In this document: positions 26,270-54,002 of the stretch, piece after piece
Layout: the number at the start of each line of letters is the position of its first letter
Position numbering within the stretch: the stretch's first letter is position 1
NCBI RefSeq assembly: GCF_030684315.1
Contig: NC_081396.1
Location: forward strand, 3,844,001 to 3,908,000
From: Stegostoma tigrinum
Lineage: Eukaryota
Reading direction: 5' to 3'
DNA length: 64,000 bases
The notes under the pieces: model-generated
Seen by the model: only the letters and a program-made list of their open reading frames with translations
Told to the model about the DNA's origin: nothing
Databases searched by the model: none
Translations under genes and position numbers: made by a program

Positions 26270-26793
26270 GTTCCTTGTATTACAATAATAAAGTGTATAA
26301 TTTCGTTCTTTCGTTCGTTCTCTCTTTCTTTCTTTCTTGCTTTCTTTCTTTTTTACCTTCTTTCTTTCCCCCTTTCCTTACTTCTTTATTTCGTATCTTC
26401 TTTCTTTCCTTCTTTTCATTCCAATTGCGAAATGATGAAATTGCTGAATTTTACCGATGTTGTGAGCTCACCAGAGAAACAGATATTCGAAGATTCACCT
26501 TTTAGCTCACCATCGTTCAAGTATTTAAACAATACAACATCGGGCTGTGAGTTTTGTTGTTGGTACCACAGGAAGTAGCAGCTGCTCCATGTCATGTCGC
26601 ACGTACAGTATAAAGATAACATTAATGCTGCATTAAAATCTGAAGAAAGCAGCTGATTTGGAAACATACAGTAATGTAAATATCAGATGGATTTGTGTTC
26701 AAAACTTAAATGAATACATTGCTCAGGTTGATATGTGATATCTTTATAATTACCTGTGAGAAAAGCTGAATACTGTTGAATTTCATCCTCCAT
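26270..26793 (-). pseudogene. TCR alpha/delta-type V pseudogene (leader exon, 114-bp intron, V exon with FR1 deletion and a microsatellite in FR3)
   Basis: Leader ends TTT CTC ACA G|GTAATT (exon end 26754); acceptor ctttcttcag| (exon start 26639). Translation: SLYCTCDMTWSSCYFLWYQQQNSQPDVVLFKYLNDGELKG..FSGELTTSVKFSNFIISQLE. After the microsatellite it resumes as NYTLYYC (YYC at 26290-26282), three substitutions from DSALYYC. No correctly spaced RSS. Confidence 0.8.
26301..26416. repeat. Degenerate (TTTC)n microsatellite
   Basis: tttctttctt... tract lying inside the V exon. Confidence 0.9.
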
Positions 26794-27174
26794 CTCCGAT
26801 TTGTGAAAGGTGGAGATAGAAATGATACAAAGGTCATTCCGTTCCTCAAACTCAAAAACCTGCTGTTGCGCGTCAGCTTGCTCACACTCCTTGTTTGCAC
26901 AGTGGCACTGTGAGGCCAGTCGGCGTTCAGCAGACTGTTACTGAATGGAAACATCTTGAAACAGATGAGAGACAGTGTTCCCATAGCGGAAAGGATACTG
27001 GAAATGAAGCATTAACCCCGACTTCCCTTCACAAATGTTATAAGATCTGCTGAGATTTTTCAACAAAATCTGCTTTTGTTCCTTACAGACAGAATGCTTC
27101 CACTCTTGGAAATATCGGGAATGATCCTGAAGCCGTTATTATTTTATGTCTCGAAACGTAAGCTGATCAATAGG

Positions 27175-27369
27175 TAGTAGGAACTGCGATGCTGTAGAAT
27201 CTGAGATAACAAGGTGCAGAGCTGCATGAACAAAGCAGGCCAAGCAACATCAGAGGACCAGGAACGCTGAAGTTTCTGGCTTAGAGTTTATGCCGGAGCC
27301 GTCAGCATTTCTGCTCCTATGATGCTACTTGGCCTGCTGTGTTCATTCATCTCTACACTTTGTTATCTC
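27175..27369. mobile_element. Short palindromic PLE-derived element
   Basis: Inverted arms; exact 14-bp TSD agctgatcaatagg at 27161-27174 and 27370-27383. Confidence 0.8.
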
Positions 27370-27672
27370 AGCTGATCAATAGGGCTTGTTTATTCTAACA
27401 GTAATACTAGCTTGCAATTACTTGTATTTTCTCGCTTCTCCTATTTATTTTGTCTTTGTGACTGCAGTCTGAATTATCAAAGCATAGAAACTCAGAGGTT
27501 TTCTGTCACCACTTCAGCTTCATTGAGTTAACCAATATTCCCCATTGGTGTGAACAACTTTAGCAGATGCATTATAATCATAACACCTCAATAACAATGT
27601 TAAAATAGAGAACCTTGATTCAAAATTCGAGAATAGATTCGGTTTATTTAAATGAAGATTTGTATCTACATC

Positions 27673-27860
27673 AGAAACAAAAGACACATTTCCTGGAGAA
27701 GGTTAGCATGTCTCGCAGCATTTGTAAATGAGAAAACAGAGTTAACGTTTTGGGTCCAGTGTCCTTTCCTCAGAACTGATGCTGCCAGATGTTCTGAACC
27801 TCTCCGGCAACGTTGCTTTAGTTCCTGAGTTATGGCATCTTCAGTTCCTTCGGTTTTTAC
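27673..27860. mobile_element. Short PLE-derived element (second subfamily)
   Basis: cctggagaag..agttaacgttttgggtccagtg..cagaactgatgctgcc; flanking direct repeat tatctacat. Confidence 0.6.
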
Positions 27861-28254
27861 TTATATCTACATTATCTGCTTGGGTCAGCAGTTAACAGTT
27901 AACATCCCACTGCAGCTTTGTGTCTTCATACTGTTAAAACTTTGTTCCATGCAAATTGTTCAACTTATCTCTTTATTTAAATACCTCACTGCATTGAAAT
28001 GAACTGAATGAGTGGCAAAAAGCCCAAATGGATGTGAAAAAATTATGCATTAATATCTTGCATTCATTCCAGGATTCAGCGATATTTTAGCTAATGGGCA
28101 TAGACATTTAAACGCCAACAGATAAGCTCTCTCAACTTTCTGTATGCAGACTGCACGATGCACGTTTAAGATAACCCCATGATTACTGTGCGGTTCTAGT
28201 CATTCAGGAAGATTAGTGCATCCCAGAAATCGCCCTAAACCCTTTATTAGTTCA

Positions 28255-28580
28255 CAAAATGAGGACGTCGCTGGCTAGGCAGAATTTATTGCCTATGCCT
28301 CATTGCCCAAAAATCAGTCCAAAATGCTATGGGTCTCGAAGACACATGTAGGGCAGACCAGGAAAGAATGGCAGTTTCCTTGCCGAAAAACCACTAATGA
28401 ACCAGATTGTTTACTTTTTCCAGATAATCAACTGTGAAATCATGGTCATCATTGGACACTCCATTCCAGATATTTTATTGAATTCAAATTCTACCATCTG
28501 CCGTAGTGGAATTTGAAACCATAACATTATCTTGTCTCCAGTTTTACAGTCGAATGATAATAACATTCGGCCGTCACTTC
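28255..28580 (-). mobile_element. Deu-domain SINE, degenerate
   Basis: Reverse complement of the SINE at 20200 (gaatttattgcc, cagaccagg, tttattgaattcaaattctaccatctgccgtagtgg). Confidence 0.65.
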
Positions 28581-29099
28581 ACCCTGATGTTCTTCCATAC
28601 TAAGTTATTTTCTTTCTCTTCATGGAGCCCTTACTTTAAGTGTAGAGTTGCTCATCTCACGAAATCGTTTCTACTTACAATTCCTTTTCCGTTGTCTATT
28701 ATTTCTTAGATTTCGTTTCATATTCTGTACTATCTGCAAACAGTTGCTTTCGCTATTTCGATCTATTAATCTCCTTTATTATGTACTGATCTATCAAACT
28801 TTTGGTCACTATCTCTACATCATTTCAATCACTGTTGTGTCACTGTTGATACCTCAATATCTTGCTCGAAACATGCATCAATTTCTCTCAATGTCTTTCT
28901 CTCTCATTCACTCAATGTTTCTTCTTTCTTCATTTACTTCTCCCAATTTCTTAGTTTTGCTTGTTTTTGTACTGTTGGTCATGGCACAGACCAATCACAT
29001 TCAACAGATTTCGCACCTTTGTGACACTGCAAATTACCAGCACATTTCAGAGCATGAGACATCAGTAATTGTGCAGACCTGAATTTGACCATCAGTGCA

Positions 29100-29690
29100 A
29101 TATCATGCTGACTCGTGATCATCATGGCTTATTCCTTTATCCTCGTTGAAAACATTCAAAAATCTTGAAGTTTTTTTTTGTTTTAAAATGTAGTTGTGAA
29201 TTGGCTTGTGCAAAGGGGAGAGAATGGAGGCGAAGTAGGAAGAGATGTGATCATTGTGGCAGTAGCTCGGAGAGACAATGAGTCGGCAGGGGTAGTTGTG
29301 CTTATGGATTTTGTGGAACAAGTTGAATCGGACAGTGTTGGTCTGGGGTGTCTATCAGGTTGGAATTTGGTGGGGGGTTGAGGATGGTTATCAGCAGAGG
29401 ACACCAGAAGCAATGAGGTAAGGGACAGTTTCGGAGACAGTGGCTTGATGAGCGGGGTTGTATCAATTTAAGACATGATGTCAGAGAGTTGAATTTTGGC
29501 CTTTGTGGCACAGAGCTGCTTCCTGCACAAACACCGTCCCTGCCTTTGTCAGCGGGCTTGACAGTGAAATTAGTAATGGTGTGGAGAGATTGGAGCACTG
29601 CACATTCGGAGGGAGAGACGTTAGAATTGGTTAGAGTTGTGGTAAAATTCAGGCGTTCGTTGATTTGGGAATTCATGCTTCAATAACTGA
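29100..29690 (-). mobile_element. Penelope-like RT N-terminal fragment
   Basis: NVSPSECAVLQSL..FTVKPADKG and FHKIHKHNYPCRLIVS. Confidence 0.75.
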
Positions 29691-32600
29691 AGAAATATTT
29701 TCTCTTTTAACCCATGCCTGTGTCAATAGTTTGATGTGCGAGACTGCTTTCATGTGTAACCGTGTCAGTGATTACCAGAGGTAGTTGGAGTTGTCGAGTT
29801 TAGCTGACAGTCAGATCAGCTCTCATCTGACTGACTAGCGGACCAGGCGAGTGTGACTGAATGAGTCATAGTCAAACCCAATTCACTTGATAGTATCTGA
29901 TGTTACAAATAATTCAAGAGAATCTTGGAGCAGTAGCAAGGGTGTGGGCACACGGTATGGCGAGTGATCCAGATCCAATTCTGCTTGAAATCATCAGACC
30001 ACAGGTGCTGGAGGTCAGAAATAAAAACTGGAAGGGTTTGGAATTCTCAGAAAATCAAATGCACCTATGGAGAGAAAAGATGAAGCTAAAAAAAATCAGA
30101 GCTAAACTTTCCAGTTCAATGTCATTCTCCTTTGGAACCGAAGAGATTTGGTGAATTATTAGTTTCAACATAGTGAAACGGGGGAGGAGGGGCGTGGTTT
30201 GGGAAGATGAAAACAAACAGAAGTTCTAAGAAAATAAAAGTGGGGAGTGACTTTGGAAACCATATTGCATAAACTAAGCTCAGAAACAGTCTTGATAACT
30301 GTAAAGAAGACAAACCATCGATCAAGTGCAACTGTTGACAACAGAAAGAAAACCCTGAATGAAAACAATGTCTTCAAAACGAAGACACAGATTGAGTAGT
30401 AATTTCCATACCAAAATGAAAAACACAGTTCGAAACCTGAACTGATTCAACTCTAAAACGCAAAAAATGGAGAATGTTGAAGTAACGTGTCGATTGACCA
30501 TATACTCCAACTATCCTTGCACATTTTCTTTTGCGCTTTTGCATTCTCTTTTGTACCTGCAATATAAATAATCCAAGAATATACAGGACAGCCATTCTCC
30601 TTGCAGATTTCGTCATCATATGATTTCTGTTTTCTTGGGCAAACTCATTTTCATTTTCTGTTGCATTTTATTTTATTTGAGGAAATATTCTTTGTCGATG
30701 TAAATCTTGCATTTCTTGCGTTTATTCTCACCTTCTCTTACGGTCACTCGTGAAATATTATTAGTAATTGTTGGTGATGCTGGATCTGCTTTATCAATAT
30801 GCCTGTGGAAGTTATCGCTTTGAACCATCACTAGATTCATTAAAGAAAAATAACCTGCTATCTCACTAATACTAAGAGATTCTGTCATTGGTGTAATGTA
30901 TTTTTTCTGCCTGTCCATCTCCTGTGAGTCTTCTATAGCTCATTCCAAACACTGGGCATAATATACTGTCCGGATATAATGATTCAGAAACAACGTAATG
31001 CAATGGCCCATTTCCAGAACAATCGATAAGGAAGAGTCAATGCAGTTTGACAGTAATTTCAACAAATCAAATCTATCAGCCTTTTGATGGCAGGAACTTA
31101 ATGCAAATAGAATAGACTATGTCATGACTAGCAGAGGATACGGGAAGAATGCGATCGAATGATGAGAGATTGTGCTTGAAATAAATGAAGGGAAATGTTA
31201 CTTCATATCCAGAAGGCAAATGGTGTGGGATTTCACAGTTCACAGCTGCGTAATCCAAACTCTCCCAGTGACTGTAATGAGCGAGATGTCTGAAAGACTT
31301 GTGCTGAAAAGCATTCACTTTACTTTCCAAAGATCGAGCGTTCCGTTACTCACAACAATGCATTTGACTGTTAGTTTTATGAATGAAGCTTAACAACTCC
31401 ATTGCCTACAATTGGCGATTGTTGGAATTGTATTGCATAGAATGTCTTGCACAGGAACTGTAGCTGGTCCGTGCCAATGTTTATTTTCGACACAAGTCTT
31501 CCCGCGGAATGCAACATCTGAAACTAATCATGTCTTTTCTGATTTTCTTTGTTCTTCCTTCTTTTAGCTCTTTTTAACATTATCCGTGATAATTAACTCA
31601 GTAAATCCATTTGAGTGCATGTGTGCGTGGACTGCAGTAAAATGCAGGAAGCAGTTATGAGGTTAAACAACAAGGTAGCTATTTCCTGATTACAATCAAC
31701 ATTGATGATCGTTGTAATTTTTAAATGTAATTCAGGTCCATTCATCAACACAATCTACATTTCCCCTCTATTGTAGCGTTATTATATCTCATGATTCTGG
31801 AATATTCATTTCAGCATCTGCAACACAAGACCATTATTGCATGCTTTATGTGGTCCTTGGCAGTTTGTGTATCACTTATGTGATTGTCAGACTGTTGCTG
31901 TTATTGATTCACTTTTTCGAAACATATCTTTGAATGGTGGTCATTTCTGAATATTGAAATGAACGACTGGACCTTTGGTACAAAGGAGTTATTGGACTTT
32001 AGGAAGTACCGTACTATAGGCTAAGAGTCAGGCAAAAATCAAGCAGACTATGTGGAAATCCTGTAACATCATATAGCAAAATGGCATAAAGGAACTAACG
32101 AAAAAAACCCTTACGTTCTATTTTCCAAATACAAGTCATCCAGTTATAATATTCGAGTTGGAATGTATTCGTGTTCATCATTTGCTTCACGATTGTTTAA
32201 AATCAAATTTGATAACACAGGAAATAGCAATTGCAGGACAGTGCAGATTTCAAGGTTTCTCCATTTAGATTACGCCATGGTTACTGTATATGAATGTCAA
32301 TTTCGTGCACTTGTCCCATGTCTTTCTTTCTTTTGATGTAAGAGCGTCTGTTGATTGATATTTTGAATTGATTTGGCCGCTGACTACCAATAACTGTCTG
32401 AGAAATAATCCACAGGTTTACAACCGCTTCGTGCAAAACTTCACCTTAGCTCTGCCCAAAATGTCTGAAAATTTCTGATACCTTAGCCTGGTAGAGAGAC
32501 TTTGCTGCATCGTGAATGAAAGCAGCAAGACCAATTTTTGCATCCTTTAATAATTCTATTATATTTCATTTCCACAGGGGAGGAATTTCAAAAGTCACCC

Positions 32601-33244: not shown

Positions 33245-33495
33245 TACAAGAATCCCCTCCCTAACTCCCCACCTCTACTCTCCTCTCCACCTATCTTCTT
33301 TTCTCTCCATTCTTGTCCGCCTCCCCCTCGCTCCCTATTTATACCAGAACCCTCTCTCCACCCCGCTCTCTGATTTAGGGTGCAGGCCCGAAACGTCAGC
33401 TTTTGTGCTCTTGAGTTGCTGCTTGGCCTGCTGTGTTCATCCAGCTTCACACTTTGTACGTTGGATTCTCCAGCACCTGCAGTTCCCATTATCAG
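33245..33495 (+). mobile_element. PLE 3' terminal fragment
   Basis: Pyrimidine tract followed by ctctgatttagggtgcaggcccgaaacgtcagcttttgtgctc..gcagttcccattatc. Confidence 0.7.
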
Positions 33496-36451: not shown

Positions 36452-36881
36452 TGGTCTCGCAACTGCGCTGAGAAGATTGCGCATGGATCATTTCTGACGG
36501 GTAATTGGCAACCTAATTCGTTTCTTTCTTTAATTTAAAAAAGATATCTGCCTTGTTAAAATGAACAAGCCTATTCTGTTAAAACATATTCCTCAGTTCT
36601 GAGGTTTGAAGATTCTGTCACTCCACTCCTGTTCTCAAAAAAAAACTAAGAGTAAAAACAATTACTTCATATTTTATCCATTACAACACACGGAACGTCA
36701 ATTGTTTATGTTGGTAACCGTGAGATTGCATTGACAAATATATTAGTGGTAATGAAGATAAACCAAATTGTGCAAAGGCCATTTCTTCTGCAGAGTTTGA
36801 AATCACAGCTAAAATCCTCACTTCATCGATGTCGTATTGGTAGCTCGCTGATACTACAGTTTGTTACTGCTCCATGAGAAG
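36452..36881 (+). pseudogene. TCR alpha/delta-type V pseudogene (leader without ATG, 96-bp intron, V exon with stops and frameshifts)
   Basis: Leader ends TTT CTG ACG G|GTAATT (36500/36501); acceptor cctcag| (exon start 36597). Translation: LRFEDSVTP..TIT..NTRNVNCLCW*, then KYISGNEDKPNCAKAISSAEFEITAKILTSSMSYW*LADTTVCYCSMR. Confidence 0.88.
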
Positions 36882-36920
36882 AACAGTGATGGAAGTCAGT
36901 CAACCTTTCAAGCAGAAACT
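36882..36920 (+). other. Degenerate 23-bp-spacer recombination signal sequence
   Basis: Heptamer AACAGTG (36882-36888; the essential first C is mutated), exactly 23 nt of spacer, nonamer GCAGAAACT (36912-36920), directly after the CYC-SMR codons. Confidence 0.8.
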
Positions 36921-37323
36921 TGCATCGATCTGAATGCTTTAGAAACACTTGTTTGAACAAGATCCAGCAGGTGTCAAATTGATGATGAAACGCAGCGTGC
37001 CTGGCCTGTCAAACATAATGGGATAGCCCCAGGAAGCAGCCCATTGTATGAAGCTATCAATGTAGTCAGGTAATTACGCAAATTTATCATTTCAACCTCT
37101 GAAAGGCATGGTTGACACGTGAATGAAAACGCCCAGATAATTTCAGAGCCACCACTCGGATTGAGTTGGCCAATGGACATCTGCAATCATCACAATTTAA
37201 TATTGAGGTCCATAATTGGGCAGCCTGATGATCTCATGTTATGTTCTTTACTCACGACCAAAACCCTGGCCCTGACATGACACGAGGTGCATTCATCACA
37301 GCCAACCAATTTGCATTCACAAA

Positions 37324-37605
37324 TGAGATGTTGTTGGGATAACAACGCATTGATTTCTATATTCTTGAGAAATCAATTGTTTTTATCTACTGGCACAGGG
37401 ATACACGGACACTGTCTTAAAACTTCCTTCTCGACTAGATTTAAGTGTGAAACTTTGTAAATCCTTATCTTCCAACACATAATTAGAAAGACACTGCCTC
37501 GAGATTCCTGCCTGAATAGAATTAGGTATAAGCTTTGTTAGTCTTTATCTTTCCGCACTTCGGTATGTGGAAACTGTCTCAAATAAGACTAAGTTGGGCA
37601 GCGTT
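37324..37605 (+). repeat. ERV 5' LTR (3' part and PBS apparently deleted)
   Basis: Aligns to 44935-45215; homology stops shortly after gaaactgtctcaaataag. Confidence 0.85.
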
Positions 37606-38094
37606 TCCTCAGGTAACTGGATTATCCGGGAGGTTAGAGTCCTTCAGTTGCCGGGGTTAGTGTGCCTAGGTCAGGTAAGTGGAAAGTCTGGGAGGTGAGA
37701 TTCCCCCGGTGGATGGGGTCAGAGTCCTTAGGCCAGGAAGTAAAACTGCCTTCGTAAGTCTTGGGGTGTTCGATTCAGATTGGAAAAGTAGGATAAGTCT
37801 TCAGACGTAGGTTTCGGATAGTTACAGTACCTGTCTGTCTCAACCACCCTGCCTCAGATCGGTTGTTCAGAGGGGAAATGCCCGACGCGAATGTTGGGTA
37901 CCCGAAGTGCGTGCTGAGACTAAGGAGACTGGTGTTGTATACAGAAATAAGTAAAAAGTAAAGGCACTAAAAATGGGACAAATGTTAGATTAGTCGGGTG
38001 TCGGAACCCTTTTTCATCGGTTTTACCAGGATGACCTCGAAGAGGATATACAGTACCGAAGTCTGTTGTAATGCCAAAACAAAAAAAAAGGAAA

Positions 38095-40093
38095 ATGAGA
38101 ATCGCCATTAGGTGGAACGTGGGATATTGATCTATGTGCTAAAGTACTTGAGGCAATATCGACACGTAATGCGGGAAGTAAATGGAAACGGTTGATATCA
38201 TCCCGGAAAAAAAAGAGAGCTGAAGAGCTGAATGAAACATCAAAAATGGCTAGTTGGGTGGAAAATGCACGGAGGAAAGGGATTAGTGCATGTGATAGTA
38301 AGGGAAAACCTAAACCTTGGGAGATTTTAACGCCGCAGTGTGAGGATCATGAAATGAATGAACATGGAAGAGTGAAACAGAAAGGCTGGAAAGGGAACGT
38401 TGGGTAAAAAAACGGGGATGAGAACTGCTGACAGAAGATAAAAAAATCGGAGGTAACTCCTGACATACCTGGCATGCCAATGTTTCTCAAAAAATAATGA
38501 CACAGGTAAGCAAGATGACGGGAACTGGGGAAGGCACCCCTTGTCCCATCGGGACTACTAACCCCTCCACAACTCGAACCATCCTTGATCAACCTACATC
38601 TGCAGGCGCCCCAATACCGCCATCAGTCTCAGGAATCGCCCGGAGCCCGATTACTGTTATTGCACGCTGACCACAAGAAACCTCCTACTACAGAATTCCC
38701 AAGTCCTTCAGAAATCAGTCCACGTGAACCTTCTGACAAACCCATGGCTTGGATAGGCTCTATTTCCTGTCATTGTACATCTGAGCCTAAACAGACAATC
38801 AGGAAACAAAATACGGAACAGACTACAAGTGGACAAAAGGAGTGGGGTGCATCACTCTTTTAAAACCCACAGGGGATGCCTGAAATAAATGTCAGCCCCG
38901 CATGCAGTTTCCTCAGCCCACGAGTTCCTGTCTTGTGTCACCTCGCGATGCTGCGAGTGGTGAGAGGGATGTTAGTTCCGATTCAAGGGCTGATGATAAT
39001 GAACCTGAGGACAGCGCTTGGGAGAGACCCTCGGACACCCCTCCCCGAAAGATAGACCCCCATAAAAGAAATCCACAATCTCTGAATCGTACGATCCCTC
39101 ACCTGAGCCCAACACAGGGGGATCAAAATACTATGCAGGCCAACACTCCTTGGAAGCTGCAGGAGATGTGTTTAATTATGCAAAGAGCCACTAATAGAAA
39201 GACTAATCCTGACGACTTCATAGGCTATGTCCTGAGCAGTATTCATATGCACCAAGGCACCCCGCAAGCCCTCTTTAGACTGCGCTGTATGGCTCTTACC
39301 CTCAGTGAATTTTCTCTGTGGAAAATCCCCCTGGGAGACCCAGCTCCCCAAGACTGGAATGCTTTTATAGGTCTTGTAGCTAAAGGTCTTAAGCTACTAA
39401 CCATTAAAGATCCCCTCAAGCGAACATTGCAGAAACCAGTAGATGTTCCCAGAGTGTCAGAGTGCAAATCCAAACGCGGGGAATGAGTTCTGGGAATGTT
39501 TCTGTTCCACATATGCCACCTACTCTGGTAATACTGCCTACTTTGCAGGGAATTCCTCACCACAGTTCAATGCTCTTTTGCTGCAGTGTATACCTGAGGC
39601 TGTGGCGGTGGCTATTCGTACCAATAACATGGATTGGCCAGATAATAACCGTCCTCAAGTGGGAAGGGCCTTAACTTATTAGCGGAAGGAATCCTTACTG
39701 ACCAGAGTCACATATGACATGGTGTAGCATCACCTGTGCCAAGCCAGGTCCAGAAAACCAGCTCATCCAGCATTGGGCTTTCAATTAGTGAGGGCATTTC
39801 ACACAGAATCCCAATACTATTTTCCTGGCTGCGTCGACAATCATGGTAACGGTTTTGTCACTCATCCACACGGTCCTAATGCTCTTCACTATGGAGGACC
39901 ATATGCACCCGCTCCACCATTCCGGAGACCCAGTGCCGCTTTGCCGCGAGGCGCAACACCACACTCCAATGAGGGATGTTTTAACTGTGGCAGTTGGGAT
40001 CAGTGGATGAGGACTTGTGCTCAGAATCAAGGTCAAGGGAGAACACAAGGAAGAAGGCAACCCTTTTCCACTAATAATCCTTTTTCAGCCTGA
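38095..40093 (+). pseudogene. gag: ERV gag, frameshifted
   Basis: Pro-rich region, capsid-like PWKLQEM..NPDDF, CxxxxGE..FWECF..Y..YSG, and zinc knuckle CFNCGSWDQWMRTC. The start is approximate. Confidence 0.8.
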
Positions 40094-43000
40094 TGATCTT
40101 CACCCCATAATCTGCACATTTTAAAGAGAGATCCGGAGGATCAACCTATTGTTAATTTAACTGCACAAAGGGTAGCAAGTTCTTTTGTGATTGTTACTGG
40201 GGCCAAGACACCTATGTTGGATGCATCATGTGTACAGCAATATGGGTTTACACTCTCACCCGTCTCAGTAAGCCTTAATGGACAGACTGGACAGGCAAAT
40301 GCATACTCTTTAACAGAACCATTGGAAGTTCAATTTGGCCCTGAAAACTGTATTATTTATTTTGCCCAGACCCTCACTTTGGGAGTTAATTTAGCCGGGA
40401 CAGATTTGTTGTGCCTTCTTCAAACTGAAATTCTGTGTCCCAAGAAGGGCATTAGTGTCAAAAGTGACCCGATTATGCGACATTTTTGGGTTCATCGATC
40501 GCCACAATGATGGACAATTGACTTATCTCTGTGAGATATCACCCTTTTCCTCCAAATCCCTCGTCCTCAAGTTGACTTGTGTTATGACCCTACAGGGACT
40601 TCCTGTTAATTGGCTGGTATTTACCCCCTATCTCGGATCAAGTTTATCTGTCACTATTGTCGGGTATATAGAGGGAAAGGAAGAATCAGCGTTTCTGGCG
40701 GAGGTGCCACCCCATCTATGCCATGAATCCTTCCTGGTATTCCCTTACTTCACACTGGCTGTGAGCACCGGCTACAATGTCAAGTCCTTGGGATTTCTAG
40801 TGCACCTCTTGATCCCACAATCATACGTGGAAGTGAAGGGTTATTCAGCGCAGGTGGCTGATGGTCTCATTACATATTATAGTGAACATTTTCTTGTATT
40901 TGGGCCATTACGTCGCCACCATGCTCATCATAGTGCCTCTAAGGAGTCTTCTCCAGACCTGTGGTCTACTTCCACACCTGAGGTAGGATACACGCCGGTC
41001 ACCATCGTAGGAGTGCGCTTACCCTCAATACCTCAGTACCCCGTCAAACCTGAGACAGTGGAAGAAATAACCTCCCTGATCAAGTCGTTCCTCCAACCAG
41101 GTATATTGTTCCTTTGTCAATTGCCTTGCAATACTGCTATTCTGCCCCTCCCTAAACCCGGTCGCCAGGAATGGCGACTGGTCCAGGACCTCAGACAAAT
41201 ACATAAGATAGTGCGACCCTGACATCCGATTGCCCCTAATCCTGCCACTATGCTTAGCAACATCCCCTCAGATGCGTGTGTCATCACCGTTTTGGACTTG
41301 CAACATGCATTTTTCATGATTCCCTTGCATCAGGGGCCTTAATATCGGTTTGTCTTTTCCTTTAAAGGACAGCAGGAGACCTGGACATGTCTCCCCCAAA
41401 AGTTCATTCACTCGCCTGCCCTAGTTTCCCAGGTCTGGCATCACCAGCTCCAAGATCTCCGACTCTTGGATGGCTCCACTGTTATCCAATATGTTCACGA
41501 TTTGCTCTTAGCAAGCCCATCATAATCCAATAATGTTTTGGATACAAACAGCCTTTTGAACGCTCTTCAATCTTGGGCATATCTTCTGACCACTGTGAAG
41601 GTTACGTGTAATGAACAGCAGGGGCCGTTCCCAAGGATTCTGCTCAGCGCCTGGGAACAAACGCTCACCCCTCAGCGCATTGCTCTTATTCAGATGAACC
41701 ACGCCCATAACCCCAAAACAAGTAAGGGCCTTTTTAGGCTTGGTAAATTCTTGTTGACAGTGGTTCCCTACTGTCCCTTTGCTTTTAAAAAAAACTACCG
41801 ACCCCTTTAGCTTCTTGTAAAAACCCAAAAAACCTTCACCCTCTCTGACAAACAACAGTCAGCCTTTGCAGACTTAAAAGCAGACCTTGCGGCTGCCCCG
41901 GCTTTGAGAAGACCTTTACATGACAGACCTTTCCGGCTATATGTTAATGTTGTGTATGGGTGCACCACTGGGCTATTGACACAGACTCGTCGCATGGGCA
42001 AACAACCGGCCAACGACGACTCTACCTGCCTGGACTCTGTCGCACATGGGCGTACACCTTTGTTCCAAGATTCTTCTTGCAATTTATACTTCAGTCACTG
42101 CAGCCTCTAAAGTTACTCTCCACCAGCCACTTACTGCCGAAAACTCACATGCCATTGACGTCATCCTCTCCTCCCACCAGACTCAACACCTTACCCAGGC
42201 ACATTTTAGCTGCTACGAAGTCGCACTCCTTCACAATCCGCTCTTGACATTCTCTTTCTGCTTCACAAATAACCCAACCACGTTTTTGAGCACCAAACTT
42301 CGATGAGTTTTTAGCACACCTGCATGACTGCTTACGAAGGAACCAATTTCTAACATTTCTGCGCCTGTACATGATTGATGTCACGGATCCTTCTCCGGAT
42401 GTTATCCTGTTTGTTGATGGCAGTTCCTCCAAGTTCCCCTTGGGTAACACTCTGGATATCCAATTGTCGACGTTGCCTCAGATTAGATTCAATGGTGTTT
42501 GAGCCCCCAGTGTCCGCTCAGAAAGCAGAACGTTTTGTCCTTACTCTGCTTGCATCCTAGCAACAGGGAAGTCAGCGAATATTTACACAAACTCTCCGTA
42601 TGCCTTCAGAGTCAACCACAACTTTGGCCAGTTATGGTGTCAGGATGGGTTTTTAACATCTTCAGGTTCACCCTTCCAACATTCCTCGTTTGTTAAAAAC
42701 CCTCTCCAGACAATTCTCTTCCCTAACCAAGTGGTTTTTATCAAATGCGTTGCCCATGCCTCCGACGAATCTGGAGTTACTCAGGGCAACACTCGGGCTG
42801 ATCAGGCGGCCAAACAGGCAACTGCAGATCAAACCTTTATTGTGCCATGTACGAACAAGCAGGTGGGAAATCCAATGCCTCATTCGGACTAGATGGGCAT
42901 ACCAGAAATAGTCACTGTTCAACACCTACAGGGCGATGTCCCTGCTTCTGAAAAGGACATTCGGACGGTGCATGGATGTTCGTATTCTGCATCGTCAGGC

Positions 43001-44085
43001 CTTTGGCTTACCCTCGTCGGCCAAGTGTGTATACCTGTTGCTTTGTTACCAATGCTTGTTGACTGTCTGCATTCTGACACCTACGTTGGCAAAGAGGCAA
43101 TGAGTGGTATTATGCTCCGTACCTTGTGGCACACCCGACTGGCTGAGGCACCCGCCCCCCCGTCCCAGTCTCAAAGACCATCATTTCTCACATGCAAGCA
43201 AAACAATTTTGGTCTGGGGGAGACGTGCTCACCAGGAAAAAAAATCAGGTGGACCGTTTGAATGCATTTAACTGGATTTGATTGAATTACCTCGTGTAAT
43301 TAGTTGTAAGTATTGTCTTGTCATTGCAGATTCATTCAGTAGGTGGAGAGAAGCTTTCACACTGACACAAAACAAAGCCTCAACAGTAGTGAAGTTATTA
43401 TTAATTGAAATAATGCCAAGGTTAGGAGTGACTCGACAATTTAGTTCTGTCAATGGCATCACTTTGTAGGAAAGATTAATAAGGAACTGTGTGATACGTT
43501 ATGCATCCAGCAGCAATTTCAACGTTCATACCAACCCTCAGTGTCAGGGATAGTGGAAAAAGAGAATGGAACGCTCAAAGCGAAATTGACCAAGTTGATA
43601 TTAGAGACTGGCCTGAGCTAGTTAAAGGTTTTGCCGCCAGCTTTGCACCACACGCGAATAACACCCTATTCTCAGACTGGACTCACAGCAACAGAAATCG
43701 CCTGTGGCTGACCCAGCAAAACACCTTGGGATGCCAATACCAGCCCACCCACCCAAATTGACTTGAATGTTGTGGGAGAAGAAATGCAAAGGTATTTCCT
43801 GCAGCCAACATCGTCTCCAAAGATTCTCCATTCACTGGTGAAGCTGGTGAAGTGTACCATTGGAACACCGTTGCAGGCACTAGACCAAGACCTGAAGCAC
43901 TAGAATCGCTCTTCATGATGACAGATTGGAGATTTCGTACTTGTCCGAGATTGGGATCACCCAAATCTTGGGTGGAGGTGGAACGGGCCATTCTTAAAAC
44001 TCCAACAGCTCTATAAGTTAAAAGACAGAATCACTGGATCCACCTCAGTAAATGCAAAAGACAGATTCCCTCTTCCCCTTGCAAT
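40094..44085 (+). pseudogene. pol: ERV pro-pol (protease, putative 2H domain, RT, RNase H, integrase), disrupted
   Basis: PR: IVTGA (decayed DTGA) and NLAGTDLL. RT: PQYP, CNTAILP, WRLVQDLR, LDLQHAFF, LPQKFIHSP, YVHD (41490-41501). RNase H: LFVDGSS, AQKAE. IN: DLIEL..LVIADSFSRWREAF, SGIVEKENGTLK, RWNGPF, WIHLSKCK. Confidence 0.93.
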
Positions 44086-44089
44086 TCAC

Positions 44090-44880
44090 CATTTGAATGA
44101 GGATTATTCTGACAGTGCATGTCCAGCAAACAATCTGTTGCACAGAACACACGTCCAACTGCACGGGAATCAGACAACATGTTACCTGCTACCAGGCAAG
44201 AAGGGATTCGTTTTCCTTCTTAATGAGACCTTCACGATTGCCACTAAAATTTTGCTGGTGCTGTTTGCTGTTGGGGCCATTGGGCGCCTCATGGTCTCTT
44301 GTCCCCAATGAGCGTGGATTCAATGGCGAATTGTCACACGCTTCCTGAGCCTGTAGTTTTGCGATGCATGGCAGGATCCAATTGCCTTGGGCTCTTCCTT
44401 GTGTTATGGCTTCCTTGGAACTGTTAGCTTGGGAGGATCCCCGCGGTGGAGTTCGTAAATAAACCGAAATTACCTGAGATGTAGACTCACCACCCTGGGA
44501 AACAGCACAATGAAAGCATTGGAGGCAGTCAACCGAGAATTTGCCAAACTTCATCTCTGTGCTCAGTCAACCCGGTATGCAATGGACCATCAACTGGCTC
44601 AGCAAGGTGGAGAATGTATTATCATGGAGGACAAGTATATGACCAAGTTACAGATGAGTCCTATAGTATTACCCAGGATATGCAAGCCATACAATGGCAC
44701 TTGGAACAGTAGAGAGAGGGGCCCTGACCGGGGCAGGGTGGCTCTTTAGCATGGTTTATGGGCGGGTCTTGGGTCTCATACCTGCTACATGAGCTAGTTA
44801 TTCTACAAGTTGTCATAGCGTTTGCTGTGTGTTTATTGTGTGCCTGAAATCTTGATTCAGGCATGCGTTTGCCAGATCAG
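44090..44880 (+). pseudogene. env: ERV env remnant (SU largely missing; TM with immunosuppressive domain)
   Basis: ALEAVNREFAKLHLCAQSTRYAMDHQLAQQGGECIIMEDKY is a decayed QNR-ALD-LLA-QGG-C ISD/CX6CC region, followed by a hydrophobic anchor LVILQVVIAFAVCLLCA. Confidence 0.8.
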
Positions 44881-44934
44881 CAGCTCCCTTCTTGTCCCTG
44901 ACATAAGTTAACATGAAATAATAAACGGAGGGAA

Positions 44935-45342
44935 TGAGATGTTGTTGGGACAACATCCCATTGATTTCCACATTCTAGAGAAGTAAATGCTCTTTACCTG
45001 CTTACCCAGAAGTATGTGGACAATGCCTTCAAACTTCCTGCCCGACTAGAATTAGGTGTAAAACTTTGTAAATTCCAATCTTCCTACACATAGGTGGAAA
45101 GACACTCCCTTAAGCTTCCTGCCTAAATAGAATTATGTACTAACTTTGCCAGACTTTATCTTCCTGCGCAGGGGTATGTGGAAACTGTCTCAAATAAGTT
45201 GAGGTGTGTAGTGTTTGGAAACGTGTGAGACTTCTGAAATCCTGTAAAGAATGTAACTTCTGTTTCTGCTAAATGGGCCAGGGCACTGAATATTTTTTTT
45301 TTCAAGCCAGACACTTTGGCGTCTTGAAGTTACATTCTTTCA
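44935..45342 (+). repeat. ERV 3' LTR
   Basis: Follows the polypurine tract; TG start and candidate CA end at 45342; internal ~80-bp tandem repeat carrying cttcctgcc (ETS-like). Confidence 0.85.
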
Positions 45343-46385: not shown

Positions 46386-48119
46386 TCCATCTCAATCTGT
46401 CTCCATCTTACTAAATGCAAACATCCATGGCGACCCGACTTTCCCGTTTCCTTTGCATACAGATCTCTGTTTCCAGGTGCATTTGGCTCTGAAGGAAGCA
46501 TCACTGTACCGGAAATATTGAGGTTGTTGAATTTCCAAAGATGCTGTCAGGCCCCCTTAGATCCGAATCAATTTCTATTTCAGCCTTTTTTTGAATTTTG
46601 TTGGAATGATAACACTGCCGTCTATGTGCTTATTTCTAACAGCCAGTACTCCAATTCGTTGTCAATTCTTTCACGATGTTACCGCATTTCAGGACCAGAT
46701 GTTGAAATACTTGCTTCATCCCCACAGGCATTCATCTTTTTAAGGTCATCAATAGAAAGATCCAATTTTCTCCGAGACTGTCAGGCAAATTCGGTTTCCA
46801 AATGAAGGGGAATTTCAATCAATGAGGGATACATGGGCTCATGCACCCCAATAGTTGGATAAACAGCCTCTGGCTCTCAGCACTCATCCCACTCAGGTCT
46901 TTCTCTTGGCATGGGGATGATATCAATCACCCAAGGTCCACACTGACGAGGAGCACGCGCAGCAGAATGGTAGTAAAGCCTCCAAATGTGAGGGAGGATT
47001 GAGGCTATCAGTTGAATGAGAAGTTTCAGTAACACCTTGGGGAGGTTGCCAGGCCTGATTGTCAATATGCTACTACTTCCTGGGGTAGAGTTTGTCAAAG
47101 AGAGCAGGGCCGGAATTTCCTGGGTGCGGTCTGAGTCCTCGAATAAGAGAGTCTCACGTTGCGACTGTACCCCGCCGGCCTTACTGGCGGCTATCGTAGT
47201 GAGAACACCATCAAATGCCATTTCTGTGACAGAATTCCTATTTTGTGTCAGTCTTTTGCGTCATTGAGAGTTTGCTAAATTCACTCTGAGACAGCTGACT
47301 CTGAGTTTAGACTATGATCCCTAAAAACATGAAAAGGGAGTGAGAGTGGCATCCAGGATTAAAAAAAACAAAACCAATCATCGTATATAAATTAACCCAA
47401 ACGAATCTGTCAATTGTTGGGGATGGAGATGAAGCATTCAAGATGTCAGTCACCTGGTGTGAAAGTCCTTTGCTCATTGGTTTACTTTTTAGTTTGTCGG
47501 CAAGCTGGAGAAATGAACCCAAACATGGAATAGGATTGGAGAACAGTGAGATTTGAGGAAGGAAATAATGGGAATGGATTTGTATCTCAACCCATAGAAT
47601 CTAGCATTGTCTCATTAGTCGTCTTTTTTGATCCTGTCGTTATATTGACGTCTTTTGTAAACTCCTTTCATCGAGTGGTGCAAGCTTTAGATGGAAACGC
47701 AAACCAAAGAATGCATCAAACTTTGACCGTCTCCTTAGTTATCTGGGTCTGAATGTCATTGCTCTTTATATATGATACAACTAATATTTGTTCGTTCTGT
47801 CTGTGCGAAAACTGTTCAAAAATCAGCAAATTCTGTGACGTACACACACATTTCAACGTGAGGTTTCGACCTCACTGTATGTGGAAACAGTTTTAATTGG
47901 CAATATTTAAAAAAAAACTTGTGCTGTTCACATTCAAACGAAACGAAGTGTTCTGATGGTAAATGAGGCTTCATCTGATCATCCAAACTGCAGGGACACC
48001 TGGAAACCAGCAAAATGAAGAAACTGTGGTAATGTAATGATTATGGGAGAGTATTTAATTATCCATCCAGGTTACTAAAGGTTGACCACAGACATAAGGA
48101 GACCAGCACCACACCATAT

Positions 48120-48425
48120 CCATGGATCTGTGGGCACAGTCAAGAATTCGATTGTCATTCCTTTCTGGGATATTCACACAGTGAAATGAAGATGAAGTCA
48201 TTTACTTGCTCTGTGTGTGGGAAGGAATTTATTCAGTCCAGCATCCTGCTGTCATATGTGTGTTCTCACATTCAAGATTAGCCATTCTGCTGCACTGTCT
48301 GTGGAAGGAGGTCCAGGCGTTCATGTGAATTCATTACTGAGCAGCGAATTGGCACTGGAGAGAGGCCATTCACCTGCTCAGCATGTGAAAGAGATTCGCC
48401 CAGTCATCCAATCTGCTGAGGGTCC
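48120..48425 (+). pseudogene. C2H2 zinc-finger pseudogene fragment
   Basis: FTCSVCGKEFIQSSILL..PFCCTVCGRR..TGERPFTCSAC. Confidence 0.8.
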
Positions 48426-48542
48426 TCCCTGAGTATGCTCACAAATCAGACAATGTACCATGGCATGTAAACAACAAAAAATGTGATTTTTTAAAATTAC
48501 TGCTGGAGGCAACACATACACCGAAATATGTTAAAATGAAAT

Positions 48543-48566
48543 TTAGAATGAAGTCTCTGATCTCAC
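48543..48566 (-). pseudogene. Possible decayed IgM TM2 exon
   Basis: Acceptor ttttccag| then GTG AGA TCA, close to the expected GTG AAA TGA (VK-stop), 2.2 kb downstream of TM1. The match is short and may be chance. Confidence 0.3.
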
Positions 48567-50746
48567 CTGGAAAACCGCGTCCACTTTCAGACCTTTTTTT
48601 TTGAAAGAAAGGAAAGTCATGAAACAGAGGCAATACAAAATCACCATGCTAAAGCGCTGTTTCCGGGATGATGAGCTTTGCGAAGGCTGGCCGATCCTCC
48701 ACTGTTTAACAACAATTTTCAATTTGGTTGAATTCCATAAAATGCCACTGCGTTTTAGTAGAGTTGTACAGGGAGAAGCTGCTTCTATTGAAGAAGGATT
48801 GTAAACATTCAGACGATTGTCAAATATAACTGGCAATTAGAACAACTCAAAATTAGATAAAGTGAAGCTTATTTTAATGCAGTGACTGTTTCAGAGAGTT
48901 AAACCTGCTGCAAACTCCGCTGTGAACTCGGGATTATGCGCGGCACTCAAAGGTATTGTAGCCTGGCGAGATGGTTTGAAACAATATTTGTGATTTATCA
49001 GCAACGACGTAGGTGTCTGTGAAAAGAAGTAACCAAACAAATCTGTCCGAGCATCTCCCACATTTAGCAGCACAGCTTCTATTGTCAGTTTCTACTTTAT
49101 GCTTTGTTTCCGATCAATGCTGTTTTCGTTTCGGTTTCCACACTGTAAACCTGCTTGTGTACATCTTTTCTACACTTTGCACGTTTAAAAATTCCAGCGG
49201 TGGTGAAAGTATGTGACTTTTGCTCCAATAGTTTGGAAGAGTCTCTCTGTGTACCCAATTTAATTCAAAGGGCAATTTCTCTTTTTTGAATTTGCATGTA
49301 TGTAATGGTTGTATGTAGGAAAGTTGATCATTAATCTCATGTCATGATATAAGGTTCAATTTTAAGGATTAAATGGTAATTTGACAAAATTACGAAAATG
49401 CCGGAAATAATTATCTAGCTTTTAGTGCTCCAGCCAGACCATGACATCAGATCTAGCCGAAGCAAATCTTCATTGTTTGGTGTTTTGAAACAGCCGGTTT
49501 CATAAGAAATTTGTATTTCATGCGTAGCTGCTGCGTAAGTAAAATATAACGAGTGTAGAAATGTTCAGTGCATATAGAACAGGCAGTTTCCAGACTCTGA
49601 GAACGTTTCCTTTTTTTGACGCTGAATTGTATCTTGTGCCCCATATGTCTCAATGTATCTGTATTCTTGAGTGAATGTGATACTTGTGGCTGATTAACAT
49701 TTAATTGGACATGTTTTGTCGAAACTTATTCATTGTGAACTCATGGTCTACCGACGTTGGATGCCTTGTGGTTTTAGGCAGAATCGAGTGAACTTTTAAC
49801 TCCATTGTGTGTCTTTAGCAGCTTTCTTGTCAAACAATGGTCGTGATGTTTTTATAAAGGCTGTGACCTTTTGTGTATCAGAGGAAACATTGATGGCCTC
49901 CTTGCACTTTCATTCTGCCTGCAGATTATTCTATCAGACATATCGAGTGAAAGATGAGTTTACATTAATGGGCCACAAGTTAGAGAAGCATTAACTGAAA
50001 TGAATTCATGAAACGAAATCTGACATAAGTGTGTAGCATTTGACTGGAATCGGATCTAGGCGGACAAACTTGGGAAAATATATCATTACTGTTGGCCCTT
50101 GAAGTAAGAATTAAACAATTTCAAGTTTCATACATATTCATTCCACATTTCTTTGCCGTTTCAGACAGCATTTTTATCGAAACGTTTCTGTTAAAATTAC
50201 CAAAAAATAACATAATTACCCGATGCCACATTGAGATGATAATGCATGACCTCTGAGCTCTGAATTTTATGCTCATCGGTAACATTAACCAAAAGAAGAA
50301 AATACGGGGTCAACATAAAGGACAGACATCAATTCGGAACAAGAATAACAAGAAAAACAACCACAAGTTGACTTCAAACAACTGGAAACCTACAAATTAT
50401 TGAAAAAAATAGCTATTTCGACAATATGAAACAAGGTAAATTGGAAAACCATTAGAATATTTTCTCAGTTACTCACATAAACTATTTTTTCCCCCTCACT
50501 GCTAGTGTCGACAGCAGGAGCGATTATACATTTGGAATTCAGTGGCCTCGATAAACATAAAATTTATTCAAGGAATTTCCTTGGGGTCACAAATTCATTC
50601 ACTTGACCTGAAAAAAGAATGTTTAGGGAATGATTTAGATGTTTATGATCAGAACATACAGGTTTTAGTTTTAATTCAATGACACACATCAAGATTTCAC
50701 GAGCCACAATGGCCTGGTGATGTGTGAATGATTTCATTCTTCTCAC

Positions 50747-50863
50747 CTGCACCAGCGTGACAGCAGCACTATAGAAAATGGTCAGGAAGAAAAAGGTGAT
50801 GAATGTAGAAGCAGAAGATGTTATCATCCTCAAAGTCTTCAATCCAATTATGATCTTTCAAAT
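50747..50863 (-). pseudogene. IGHM: IgM transmembrane exon TM1, frameshifted
   Basis: Acceptor ttcatag| then DLKDHNWIEDFEDDNI, a frameshift, then ASTFITFFFLTIFYSAAVTLVQ|GTGAGA (CART motif). The 117-nt length is incompatible with a phase-1 to phase-0 exon. Confidence 0.9.
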
Positions 50864-53630
50864 CTATGAATATAAAGCCAAGATAACGGATTTAGAATGT
50901 TCATTTATCCAATCCGATGTATCTTTATCTAAATAATGTAATCAGGGACCATAACACATTCTTCAAACCGTCAGGTTGCTCTCAAATGTGTTACTTGATC
51001 TCTATCTATTATTGTGTTAGTTACTCTCAGCAATAACTTGCTAACACTAATTGCACACGTTCTTCCTTTGTTTTCCATGTCTCAACATTTTGACACATTT
51101 GTTCATTTAAACTGTTCTGGGAGAACATAATTATTGTGATCATTCCGGACATACTGATTGGGAAAGATGATATTAATTCTCTCAATATATTTTCAATACA
51201 GGCTTTTACAGCTGTTACGTTGAAAATTGTGGTCATCACTGAAGATGATTTCAAATGTGATTATTCATCTTCTTTATTTATATGCGTTGAATTGCTTGAA
51301 AAATAAGAAGCAAAACTTAGATCCAGAGCAAGATTTTTTTTCACTGTGAACTTTCCCTTATTTTATTTCAGTCTATCACTTACTGTGCATTTTTTTTTTC
51401 TTTATTGTTTGGTTATATGGTTATCAGGTTCTCTTCCTTCGCACTTGTCCACATTGAAGCTTATGCATGACTGAATATATTCCTGTTGCCTTGTTGCTGG
51501 TATGATCATTCACATCTTTGTGCTTGTGGAGGTAAATTGTGTTCATTTCACAATGTGTCAAAATCATTTTTTTTTTTGACACATCACTTCATTTGGTGAT
51601 ACCTATCTTTATTTTTTCATGACTTTGTGTTTTTTTCTTTTACGTCGTGCTCCGGAAAATGTGTGTTAATGTATCGATTTCAGATTCTACCAGACTGAAA
51701 TTATTTTCATGTTTGCACTCCATCAATATGTTGGTTTTTTATGTACCTTCATGTTTTGCTTGATGAGTATATTTAAGTGATGATATGGTTTCCTTGGGAA
51801 TGCATCCTAAACCATCTTCTGATAGGATTTCTTGTGCTGTTGCATCTGAATGTTTACTGATGTTGAGCCATTCCCCTTTTGTTGCAAATACCCGACTGTG
51901 TGTTGAAATATGCACTTCTGTGTCTGCACGTGAGACTCATTAATTGTGTTTAAAAGTGTCCGTGTTTATGCGCTGATCATTTATGGTTTAAAAGATGCCA
52001 CTAAGCTGCCTCTTTGTTCATATGACTATATTTCTTCAAGTGAGGTAATAATGAGATTAAATTTATCTCTGTGATCTTATATATGTGCGTGTGAGTGAAC
52101 CTGTGGGAGGATATGGCTCGGATATTTATATCTGTTTATAATTGCATGTCTGTACGTATGAATATATGAAAGGATATGGATTCATGAACATTTGTGTGCT
52201 GAAATGTGTCTATGATTTCAAGTTCATGTGGAGTTACCATTTTTTGTTTGGGTGTGTTTCTTTCCATGCACTGGATGTTTTTGTGAGAGTCTATGTGACA
52301 GCTCATAGATCATATGCAAATATTCCTCTCTGCATGTATGCATATGTGACAGTTTATCTGTATGTGCATTTATATTTGCACATATGTATGTCCCTTTAGG
52401 CGAAAGCTTGTGGATGAGTGTCTTTAGAGCAGTTGTGACTGTCTGTATCTGTGTTTCTTTCTGCTCTAACACAGGCTGTGTTTTATTTTTCATTATTTTG
52501 CAATTTTAATTGATTTGCAATGACTATTTCTGATCCTGATGGTATAGGGAACATTTCTCGTCTGAATTAAAGATAAGCACTTTGTGATTGACGCTTGATG
52601 CAAAGGCAGAATTTCTGTCTCTGTGATGAAAGACCTGAGATCAAATTTCCACGACTCCAGAGATGTGAAGCAACATTTCTGTGTATGTTGGATATAAAAT
52701 ATGTCCAAGGTAAGTGAAAGAAGATGACATCCGGTGTTTGTACAGCAGAACTGATACCACGGGTTCAAGGAATTTTAGTCAAGTCTGTGTAAAATAGCTA
52801 CACTAATGCTTATTTGGTTTTGTATGATGCGGAATCAATGTTAACAGATGATTAATGGAACAAGCATGTCCAACATACTTCAAAGGAAGTATGTGGCATG
52901 GAAAAATTAACTCATTGTTCAGTCAGGAAGAAACTGACTGTTCCTGTTCGGTACAAAATCACATAACAGAGGGTGTACAACGTGAAAACTTGGAGAGTGG
53001 AGTAAGCTGAGAGCTCGTTAATTGTATTCATTTCTCCGTCTCCTTGACAAGAACAAAATTTCTTTTTGTTATCTTTGGTGTGGAATTGAAGATACATTCT
53101 GTCAAGTGGTGCGCTGCTGCAAGATCACTGGACGCCCCAAGATAAAACAGAAAAATTCAAGTCATTCTGAATCCTATAAAATAAGTGTCCAAGTCAATGC
53201 TAACTTGTCAGTGTGTTCCAATAACAAATAATGATAAAATTCTCTGAAGTTGATATTGCCAGTTAATGCAGTGTGGCAGTTTAACGCTGGCATGAAATTT
53301 ACAGATATGTCTCATTGAGGACTCATCAAAACAAAGATCATAATTGGTGCTGTTCATTTGTGATGAAATGGGCATTGCAAAATTTCGTCGCAGTGTGATT
53401 TAAGTTGCAGAAGGTAATTTCTAGAATCCTGCAATGAATGAGCATCAGTCTGTCACTGAAAAGGACCAATCTAAGCAGGGAGCATTAACTGCGCAGGCTA
53501 AAGTACTGGAACTGCTAATTGTCGACATTAGCTAGAAGGACAGAATATTATAAAACGTTGGAAATCAATCAATCAATTAAACGATTGTCTATTTACAGAA
53601 CAATTGGAGGAAAGGAAACAGTTTGTTATT

Positions 53631-53636
53631 TTTATT
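53631..53636 (-). terminator. Poly(A) signal of the secretory mu transcript
   Basis: AATAAA on the minus strand about 28 nt after the tailpiece stop. Confidence 0.7.
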
Positions 53637-53663
53637 GAATTCTTTTGTGTATCCTTGAGACTT

Positions 53664-54002
53664 TCATTGGCATGAATTTATGGTGTCCATCAGTGCAAGC
53701 GAAATATTCACAAAACTCGGTTTCCCGCTTGATTTATCAACTGTTCTGTTGATGATCTTCAATGGGATCACTTCGTGTCCCACCACACAGGAGTAAGAAG
53801 CACCGCTGGCACACTCCTGCGCAGCAATGGATAATAGGATGTAGAAGAAGAAGGAGGTGTTATCGCTCTCTGTCGTCACCTCGGTGTTCATATTGTTAGT
53901 CGGATTATCGGGCTTGTCATTGGTTGTCCACTTGACGAAGCTCTCTCGGGGCCTGAAACCTCTCACTAAACAGTTGAGTGTCTGTGCGGACACTTCTTCT
54001 GT
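53664..54002 (-). pseudogene. IGHM: IgM heavy chain Cmu4 exon plus secretory tailpiece, 5'-truncated
   Basis: [68 protein letters not shown]: a C1-set domain plus shark mu tailpiece (NIS sequon, penultimate Cys). The splice acceptor is replaced by repeat DNA, and no CH1-3 or V/D/J was recognised in the 10 kb upstream. Confidence 0.93.

Follow-up and report, generated by a model that had tools for sequence, protein, structure and literature searches.

Dead TCR alpha/delta V genes and an IgM stump in the spacer of an IgM repeat unit of Stegostoma tigrinum

The analysed window, a stretch of 64,000 nucleotides, lies between two intact-looking IgM miniloci and forms the spacer of one repeat unit. 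On its contig (C55), 18 IgM clusters are arranged in tandem from 2.79 to 4.87 Mb, in two halves of opposite orientation, and TRADV fields flank this array on both sides (0.97-2.5 Mb and 5.13-5.80 Mb). The same contig carries a TRDC-like (947,114-947,422; Cdelta) and a TRAC-like sequence (844,291-844,506; Calpha), with the window 2.9 Mb from TRDC and TRADV on either side. The left-hand minilocus has its VH 31 kb ahead of the window start. To the right, Cmu4 follows 5.5 kb beyond the window end as part of a minilocus with VH (C55:3931628), D1, D2, J, Cmu1-4 and TM, whose 3' spacer reaches into the window (54041..64000, minus strand) and is there 94% collinear with unit m3327. Layout and comparisons rest on one assembly of one species.

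Two decayed V segments are located within the window. V1, on the minus strand, consists of a decayed leader exon (26754..26793; ATG at 26793), with a donor context like that of intact TRADV leaders, and a pseudo-exon (26270..26639), which starts at 26639 and is split by an (AAAG)n insertion (26418-26301). Cys23 and WYQ are kept, FR1 is shortened, the insertion breaks FR3, the YYC codons (26290-26282) are out of frame, and no recognisable RSS was detected at the 3' end. V2, on the plus strand, has the same leader-intron-V layout, with a decayed leader exon that has lost its ATG (36452..36500), a pseudo-exon (36597..36881) that is frameshifted, has three stops in its main frame and lacks Cys23, and a 23-RSS (36882..36920). 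The leaders end in TTT CTC ACA G/GTAATT (V1, donor after 26754) and TTT CTG ACG G/GTAATT (V2, donor after 36500), so that the motif TTT CTx ACx G/GTAATT, noticed in a first-pass annotation, is present in both. The RSS of V2 consists of AACAGTG, 23 nt and GCAGAAACT; the annotated 23-RSS thus stands for the spacer length, but not for the heptamer, which is without its first C. This C is lost in every V2 copy with a kept 3' end, including copy 4876 in the inverted half, and because of it a strict RSS scan overlooked the signal.

Judged by sequence, V1 and V2 are dead TRA/TRD V genes. A nucleotide TRADV profile gave exactly two matches across the window, at the V1 and V2 sites (23.6 and 23.0 bits), and the best value among the controls (20 shuffles and the reversed window) was 5.7 bits; VH and TAILV profiles matched neither relic. 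In a tree of 62 rows, both were placed in a 99/95 clade with 10 Cdelta-proximal TRADV (99/97 in another tree; nine near-duplicate VH rows were removed from the V trees). The rearranged V-J-Cdelta protein P0006 resembles this Cdelta-proximal family at 85% and the V-J-Calpha protein P0009 at 66%. An identity as IgH V, IgW V or TAILV was rejected (AU p 3e-6 for V1, 4e-4 for V2), as were IgL V (5e-4 and 1e-4), whose three rows do not themselves form one clade, and NAR V (0.011 and 0.043, the second value being weak). The labels of the IgL, TRB and TRG rows are our own assumption, drawn from known motifs and contig context.

Taken alone, the protein-level evidence for the V relics would be weak: Pfam gave no match for V1 or V2, a V1 protein search among longer proteins gave none in 24 candidates, and the best PDB match, a TRA chain (E 0.003), is too weak to classify V1. 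Both relics have the split leader-intron-V structure and lie in cis with TRDC and TRAC; a 23-RSS is recognisable in V2 only, and its heptamer is dead. A functional TRADV gene, with open frame, both cysteines and a CAC heptamer, was ruled out for either relic. Profile and tree confirm the two TCR-like V pseudogenes of the first-pass annotation as well as their TRA/TRD type, and the place within the TCRAD V field proposed there agrees with the surrounding TRADV, TRDC and TRAC.

The third receptor element is an IgM stump on the minus strand. It is composed of a 5'-truncated Cmu4 with secretory tailpiece (53664..54003; C1-set E 9e-14; polyA signal at 53636), a TM1 exon frameshifted by an 11-nt net loss (50747..50863) and a TM2 exon (50599..50607). 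Cmu4 has a 9-nt deletion and, as the first-pass annotation had not noted, is without an acceptor and the initial ~14 codons; the tailpiece frame and the polyA signal are kept. That this piece holds C and TM exons, lies 14-27 kb from the V relics and is, like all parts, defective had been described correctly. Not noted in that annotation was that the window is without any trace of VH, D, J and Cmu1-3. The stump is of IgM type, since its exon is 7% from the neighbour's Cmu4 and nested among the IgM clusters in the tree. There it groups with m4022 (100/100), apart from its intact neighbour; a recent origin by duplication from the adjacent gene was rejected by this position and by 79-81% identity.

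The stump ends at a sharp junction (54003/54004), beyond which lies the 37-nt end of a dispersed repeat (54004..54040, minus strand), which we take to be a LINE and which has ~30 copies in the DNA compared. The intact neighbour and unit m3327 are 94% alike as far as offset 15,860, which coincides exactly with the start of the stump; past this offset the sequence follows the V2-bearing units. The junction has five full-length matches and one unfused donor, C55:3311818-3312234, which matches only as far as the junction base. Contigs of two samples (three runs of one study, possibly the source) cover 52800-54800; one 81-nt contig (X1, X3) spans the junction without mismatch, but its shorter arm has only 21 letters, too few for it to count as bridging. 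The stump is the 3' end of a cluster joined to its neighbour's spacer, likely by a deletion that fused two clusters.

Between V2 and TM2, a decayed endogenous retrovirus was identified (37322..45198, plus strand) as a passenger outside the receptor genes. It is bounded by 266-nt direct repeats (37322-37587 and 44933-45198; 79% alike) and contains an ORF (40395-41222) similar to the MMLV reverse transcriptase (E 7e-10). Unit m4095 is without it. The window has 14 long ORFs, 12 of which gave no Pfam match; the Cmu4 ORF and an ORF across an N run were left out.

An orientation that would bar a V-to-Cmu product had also been proposed. This holds for the stump, but V1 runs parallel to the next IgM cluster, 58 kb upstream of that cluster's VH, and is barred from use by its lesions and not by its orientation. 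From their lesions, V relics and stump probably make no product.

Comparison of the units revealed that V2, V1 and stump copies are periodic and in register. V2 is found behind 14 of the 18 clusters, each time in the same position and orientation behind TM2, and V1 has seven copies on the contig (six at 97-100%, one at 82%). Whole units are collinear including their spacers: the match with unit U4115 extends over 62 kb (77%), that with the inverted unit P4247 over 61 kb (72%). The fused unit of ~116 kb exists in five copies, and the one compared at length agrees with the window at 96.7-99.5%. The distances between V2 copies track those of the Cmu4-TM region (Mantel test, Spearman 0.87, p 0.0001; 11 of 14 copies, three being left out), a value that rests largely on two near-copy groups. 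From one half to the other, the divergence of V2 (0.24-0.26) is the same as that of the mostly intronic Cmu4-TM DNA (0.24-0.26), while VH differs by 0.14-0.18 and the Cmu4 exons by 0.06-0.07. This intron-like divergence, above that of VH and Cmu4 exons, indicates that V2 drifted unselected from the start.

Taken together, we consider the window to be the spacer of a ~116 kb IgM repeat unit between two TRADV fields, with the V relics likely duplicated passengers (probability roughly 0.85). A lone IgM cluster relic, as first suggested, gives way to a spacer between two intact-looking miniloci. Some observations count against co-duplication. By genome search and inspection of the flanks, V2 is absent at four clusters (2794926, the germline-joined 3058039, 3257907 and 3327316); a deletion explains 3327316, and the absence at two outgroup-like clusters has no explanation. 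V1 is missing from the inverted half, which has different TRADV relics (Vx/Vy) instead. Unit m4022 breaks the congruence, its V2 being 0.06 from that of the window and its Cmu4-TM region 0.18-0.19, which argues that later crossovers or conversion acted too.

These three observations, a mosaic m4022, relics limited to one half and clusters without V2, are what would be expected if TRADV pieces had reached a single spacer of an already formed IgM array and had then been spread by unequal crossover or gene conversion. Such a late entry is unlikely, as the divergence of V2 across the halves equals that of the IgM introns and its site and orientation are constant in 14 of 14 units within collinear flanking spacer. 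That relics or stump were retained for a job, as promoter, boundary, decoy RSS or alternative TM exon, is very unlikely: V2 was kept in 14 units and the stump has an intact tailpiece frame and polyA signal, but V2 changes at intron rate, several of its copies are split by insertions or have lost their 3' end to them, TM1 carries a frameshift and the Cmu4 acceptor is missing.

A misassembly of repeats that brought V and Cmu parts together is less credible still. The array is young and tandem, and V2 copies 4376 and 4480 are identical, so that copy number may be off; yet the order is the same in units only 72-80% alike, and five distinct copies share the junction. The orphon mixing both loci away from either, proposed in the first-pass annotation, fits the fact that every part inside the window is defective, but is contradicted by the intact-looking miniloci on both sides and by TRAC and TRDC on the same contig, unless this contig is misjoined; we give it next to no weight.

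Duplication of passengers could have proceeded from a single IgM minilocus beside TRADV genes, where V2, just behind the TM exons, would have died early with a change of its RSS heptamer from CAC to AAC. A block of 70-120 kb, comprising IgM and spacer and still recognisable by its homology, would then have been duplicated repeatedly, giving two oppositely oriented halves in which 14 of 18 clusters are followed by V2, seven by V1 and clusters of the inverted half by other TRADV relics. A later deletion may have begun at the repeat end, 15.9 kb behind the Cmu4 of one cluster, and extended into the Cmu4 exon of its neighbour, removing VH-D-D-J-Cmu1-3 of the latter and leaving the stump; the fused unit would then have reached its present five copies. 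Tandem co-duplication and one deletion-fusion would explain the mixing without exon transfer at the site, so that the Ig-TCR locus exchange first inferred is not needed. The first-pass observation was confirmed and its interpretation was half right.

Mixing of Ig and TCR parts is also reported from the nurse shark, whose TCR delta locus is said to contain IgH V relics and TAILV (Deiss in 2019, Ott in 2021); here the reverse is seen, TCR V relics inside IgM units. Five V genes at 1.05-1.19 Mb among the TRADV are presumably TAILV-like. The interleaving itself is already known, having been published for four other elasmobranchs: in the elasmobranch antigen-receptor complex (AgRC), IgM, IgNAR and IgW-like clusters are linked to TCR alpha/delta, and some TCR alpha/delta-type V exons sit between IgH clusters (PMC12227049, text covered in part). 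Its Table S1 has 'IgM (missing V)', 'IgM C only' and 'IgM pseudo' among TCRad V and NARTCR of great white shark and stingray, similar to the pieces seen here. That work gives gene models; the portion of its text covered reports neither TRADV relics as a fixed part of the duplicated IgM unit, nor a fusion junction, nor a contiguous 18-cluster array between two V fields. Co-amplification of TRADV relics and the fusion were not found in the literature searched, with incomplete coverage of key papers. Nurse shark IgM miniloci have VH-D-D-J within 2 kb and one Cmu at about 15 loci, with G2A and G5 linked at 120 kb and linkage otherwise unknown (PMC2435157, in part); in the present array, the spacing of ~100-120 kb equals one duplicated unit, which contains TCR relics.

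Dead TCR V in the duplicated unit argues that the array expanded inside a TCR V field and explains this cluster spacing. The locus thereby adds a history readable from sequence, in which a dead TCR V tags the unit of IgM cluster multiplication. With about even confidence, the main IgM array may be regarded as a tenant of a working TRA/TRD locus, grown in place from one minilocus with TCR V neighbours and now separating Cdelta from most NARTCR cassettes. The rearranged three-domain chain P0016, which may be from another species, best matches far-side Vs (83-88%), a J at 959.5 kb and Cdelta, and nine of the ten members of its V family lie on the far side of the array, one at 2.04 Mb. If the array is such a tenant, VH-to-Ddelta 'trans-rearrangements' would be ordinary cis joins, and an inversion of 4-5 Mb, with every one of these IgM clusters, would accompany a far-side NARTCR join. 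Most IgH are partly rearranged in shark thymocytes, an old puzzle (PMC2435157, in part), which the opening of TRA/TRD in these cells could explain; thymocytes should then show more rearrangement in clusters inside the TRA/TRD field than in IgH clusters outside it.

Two V-like segments are interspersed with IgM exons in the window, and the positions that the first-pass annotation had given for both, and for the IgM exons, were borne out. V1 (26793-26270, minus strand) has a decayed leader and retains Cys23 and WYQ, but its FR1 is shortened, a microsatellite lies within FR3 and a usable RSS is lacking. V2 (36452-36920, plus strand) has lost both the ATG and Cys23; three stops and a frameshift interrupt its exon, and its RSS reads AACAGTG-23-GCAGAAACT. 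Because of such lesions, the parts of the window would be expected to have no function. Orientation had also been thought to preclude a V-to-Cmu product, which does not hold: V1 faces the D segments of the next IgM cluster.

A nucleotide profile of TRA/TRD V genes (TRADV) matched the window at V1 and V2 alone (23-24 bits versus 5.7 for controls), while VH and TAILV profiles searched against the window gave no match at either. For phylogenetic placement, V exons of this genome were assembled into a panel; the TRADV label is based on position, 23-RSS and rearranged proteins, taken from a public collection, with V, J and C that map to the window's contig (C55), and the other class labels were assigned from motifs that we take to be characteristic. 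In the ML tree, V1 and V2 grouped with ten Cdelta-proximal TRADV, and the clade was starred (support 99/97). The clade persisted (99/95) after removal of joined pieces and addition of NAR and IgW V, in support of the proposed TCR alpha/delta identity. AU tests rejected placement with VH, IgW or TAILV as well as with IgL V; the rejection was weaker for NAR V (p = 0.011 and 0.043). V1 and V2 share 53-57% identity with the closest intact TRADV, whereas identity to the other classes does not exceed 41%.

On C55, where the window spans 3,844,001-3,908,000, a TRAC-like exon at 844 kb, presumably alpha, is followed by a TRDC-like exon at 947 kb, which is used by a three-domain NARTCR-type chain, and by J segments at 951-961 kb. 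TRADV fields extend from 0.97 to ~2.5 Mb and from 5.13 to 5.80 Mb. Between them lie at least 18 full-length and at least five truncated IgM Cmu4 exons, in an array of two oppositely oriented halves. To the right of the window, the IgM cluster comprises open VH, D1, D2, J, Cmu1-4 and TM, and its RSS fit; in the left one, VH and RSS were examined. Across the window, no remnants of VH, D, J or Cmu1-3 were found.

Further Ig-like and TCR-like elements were observed on C55. A germline-joined VDJ of an IgM cluster (L192, 3073581-3073889) has a stop in its J part; a frameshifted VH without its own Cmu4 lies close to the array's orientation switch (4194160-4194450); an IgNAR-like cluster with NAR V, RSS and C exons is flanked by two IgM clusters (2930198-2948257). 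Several multi-C clusters and a V that we take to be IgW-like lie just past Calpha (241362-556694), and a few TRADV-related V exons with RSS-like ends more than 3 Mb past the far V field (9077897-9183910). On another contig, C54, two Cmu4-like exons (74-77%; 14174702 and 15192184) together with a V-set match represent IgH clusters off the C55 array.

V2 is present in 14 copies, each behind an IgM TM2 and in opposite orientation to it, and V1 in seven copies confined to one half of the array. In the inverted half, TRADV relics of two further families lie behind IgM clusters (4280940-4284850, 4794270-4797020 and 4882627-4884690). Alignments between units, each an IgM cluster with its spacer, span 44-98 kb including the spacers. 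Distances of V2 and Cmu4-TM were correlated for 11 of the 14 V2 copies (Spearman 0.87, p = 0.0001), a value that leans on two groups of near-copies. Against a clean co-duplication, V2 is missing from four clusters and one unit, m4022, has a mosaic structure. Divergence of V2 between the halves is 0.24-0.26, as large as that of mostly intronic DNA, compared with 0.14-0.18 for VH exons and 0.06-0.07 for Cmu4 exons. Both halves share the heptamer lesion of V2, which, together with the intron-like drift, indicates that V2 had probably died ahead of the array's expansion. The units at 4367108-4383440 and 4471120-4487450, with identical V2, almost identical Cmu4-TM and a frameshifted Cmu4 in both, reflect either duplication in the very recent past or an assembly artefact that doubled one unit.

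The IgM stump consists of a 5'-truncated Cmu4 with tailpiece (54003-53664), a frameshifted TM1 and TM2, all on the minus strand. Unit m3327 aligns at 94% with the intact neighbour plus spacer until 15,860 bases past Cmu4, where m3327 runs on into a dispersed repeat; the window retains 37 bases of this repeat and then, at the junction (54003/54004), enters another Cmu4 at codon ~15. Beyond it, the window tracks V2-bearing units at 72-80% and, further out, m4022 at 92-94%. In the Cmu4-TM tree, with the L192 cluster as one of the outgroup rows, the stump groups with m4022 and apart from the adjoining intact cluster. The junction is common to five units, and m3327 represents the unfused form. A deletion would have joined two adjacent IgM clusters and left the stump; unequal crossover would yield the same product and is indistinguishable from it. 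Taken together, we consider tandem co-duplication plus one such fusion to be the correct reading of the anatomy with a probability of about 85%.

The window is 96.7-99.5% identical to a copy at 3.38-3.44 Mb, and the last amplification of the unit is therefore recent. Carried within the amplified unit, between V2 and TM2, is a decayed endogenous retrovirus (window 37322-45198) with a broken pol and an MMLV-like reverse transcriptase start; its end repeats are 79% alike over 266 nt, and it is old.

The mix of TCR V and IgM exons noted at first sight is thus real and known in outline, and the locus is a new example of an already described arrangement. In the part of the literature that was searched, no account of V-relic co-amplification or of such a cluster fusion was found.

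The NARTCR-supporting V family has ten members, nine of which are located past the IgM array and in opposite orientation to Cdelta. One of these nine lies 3.6 kb behind a NAR-type V with RSS (5393014-5397196), and the pair forms a NARTCR cassette at a distance of 4.4 Mb from Cdelta. A rearranged chain, with no source species stated, best matches the far-side copies of this family. If the far-side Vs are used in S. tigrinum, the IgM array would sit inside a working TRA/TRD locus. Partial IgH rearrangement has been seen in thymocytes (PMC2435157). A location of the array inside the working locus would offer a cause for it, and reported trans-rearrangements would then be cis joins.
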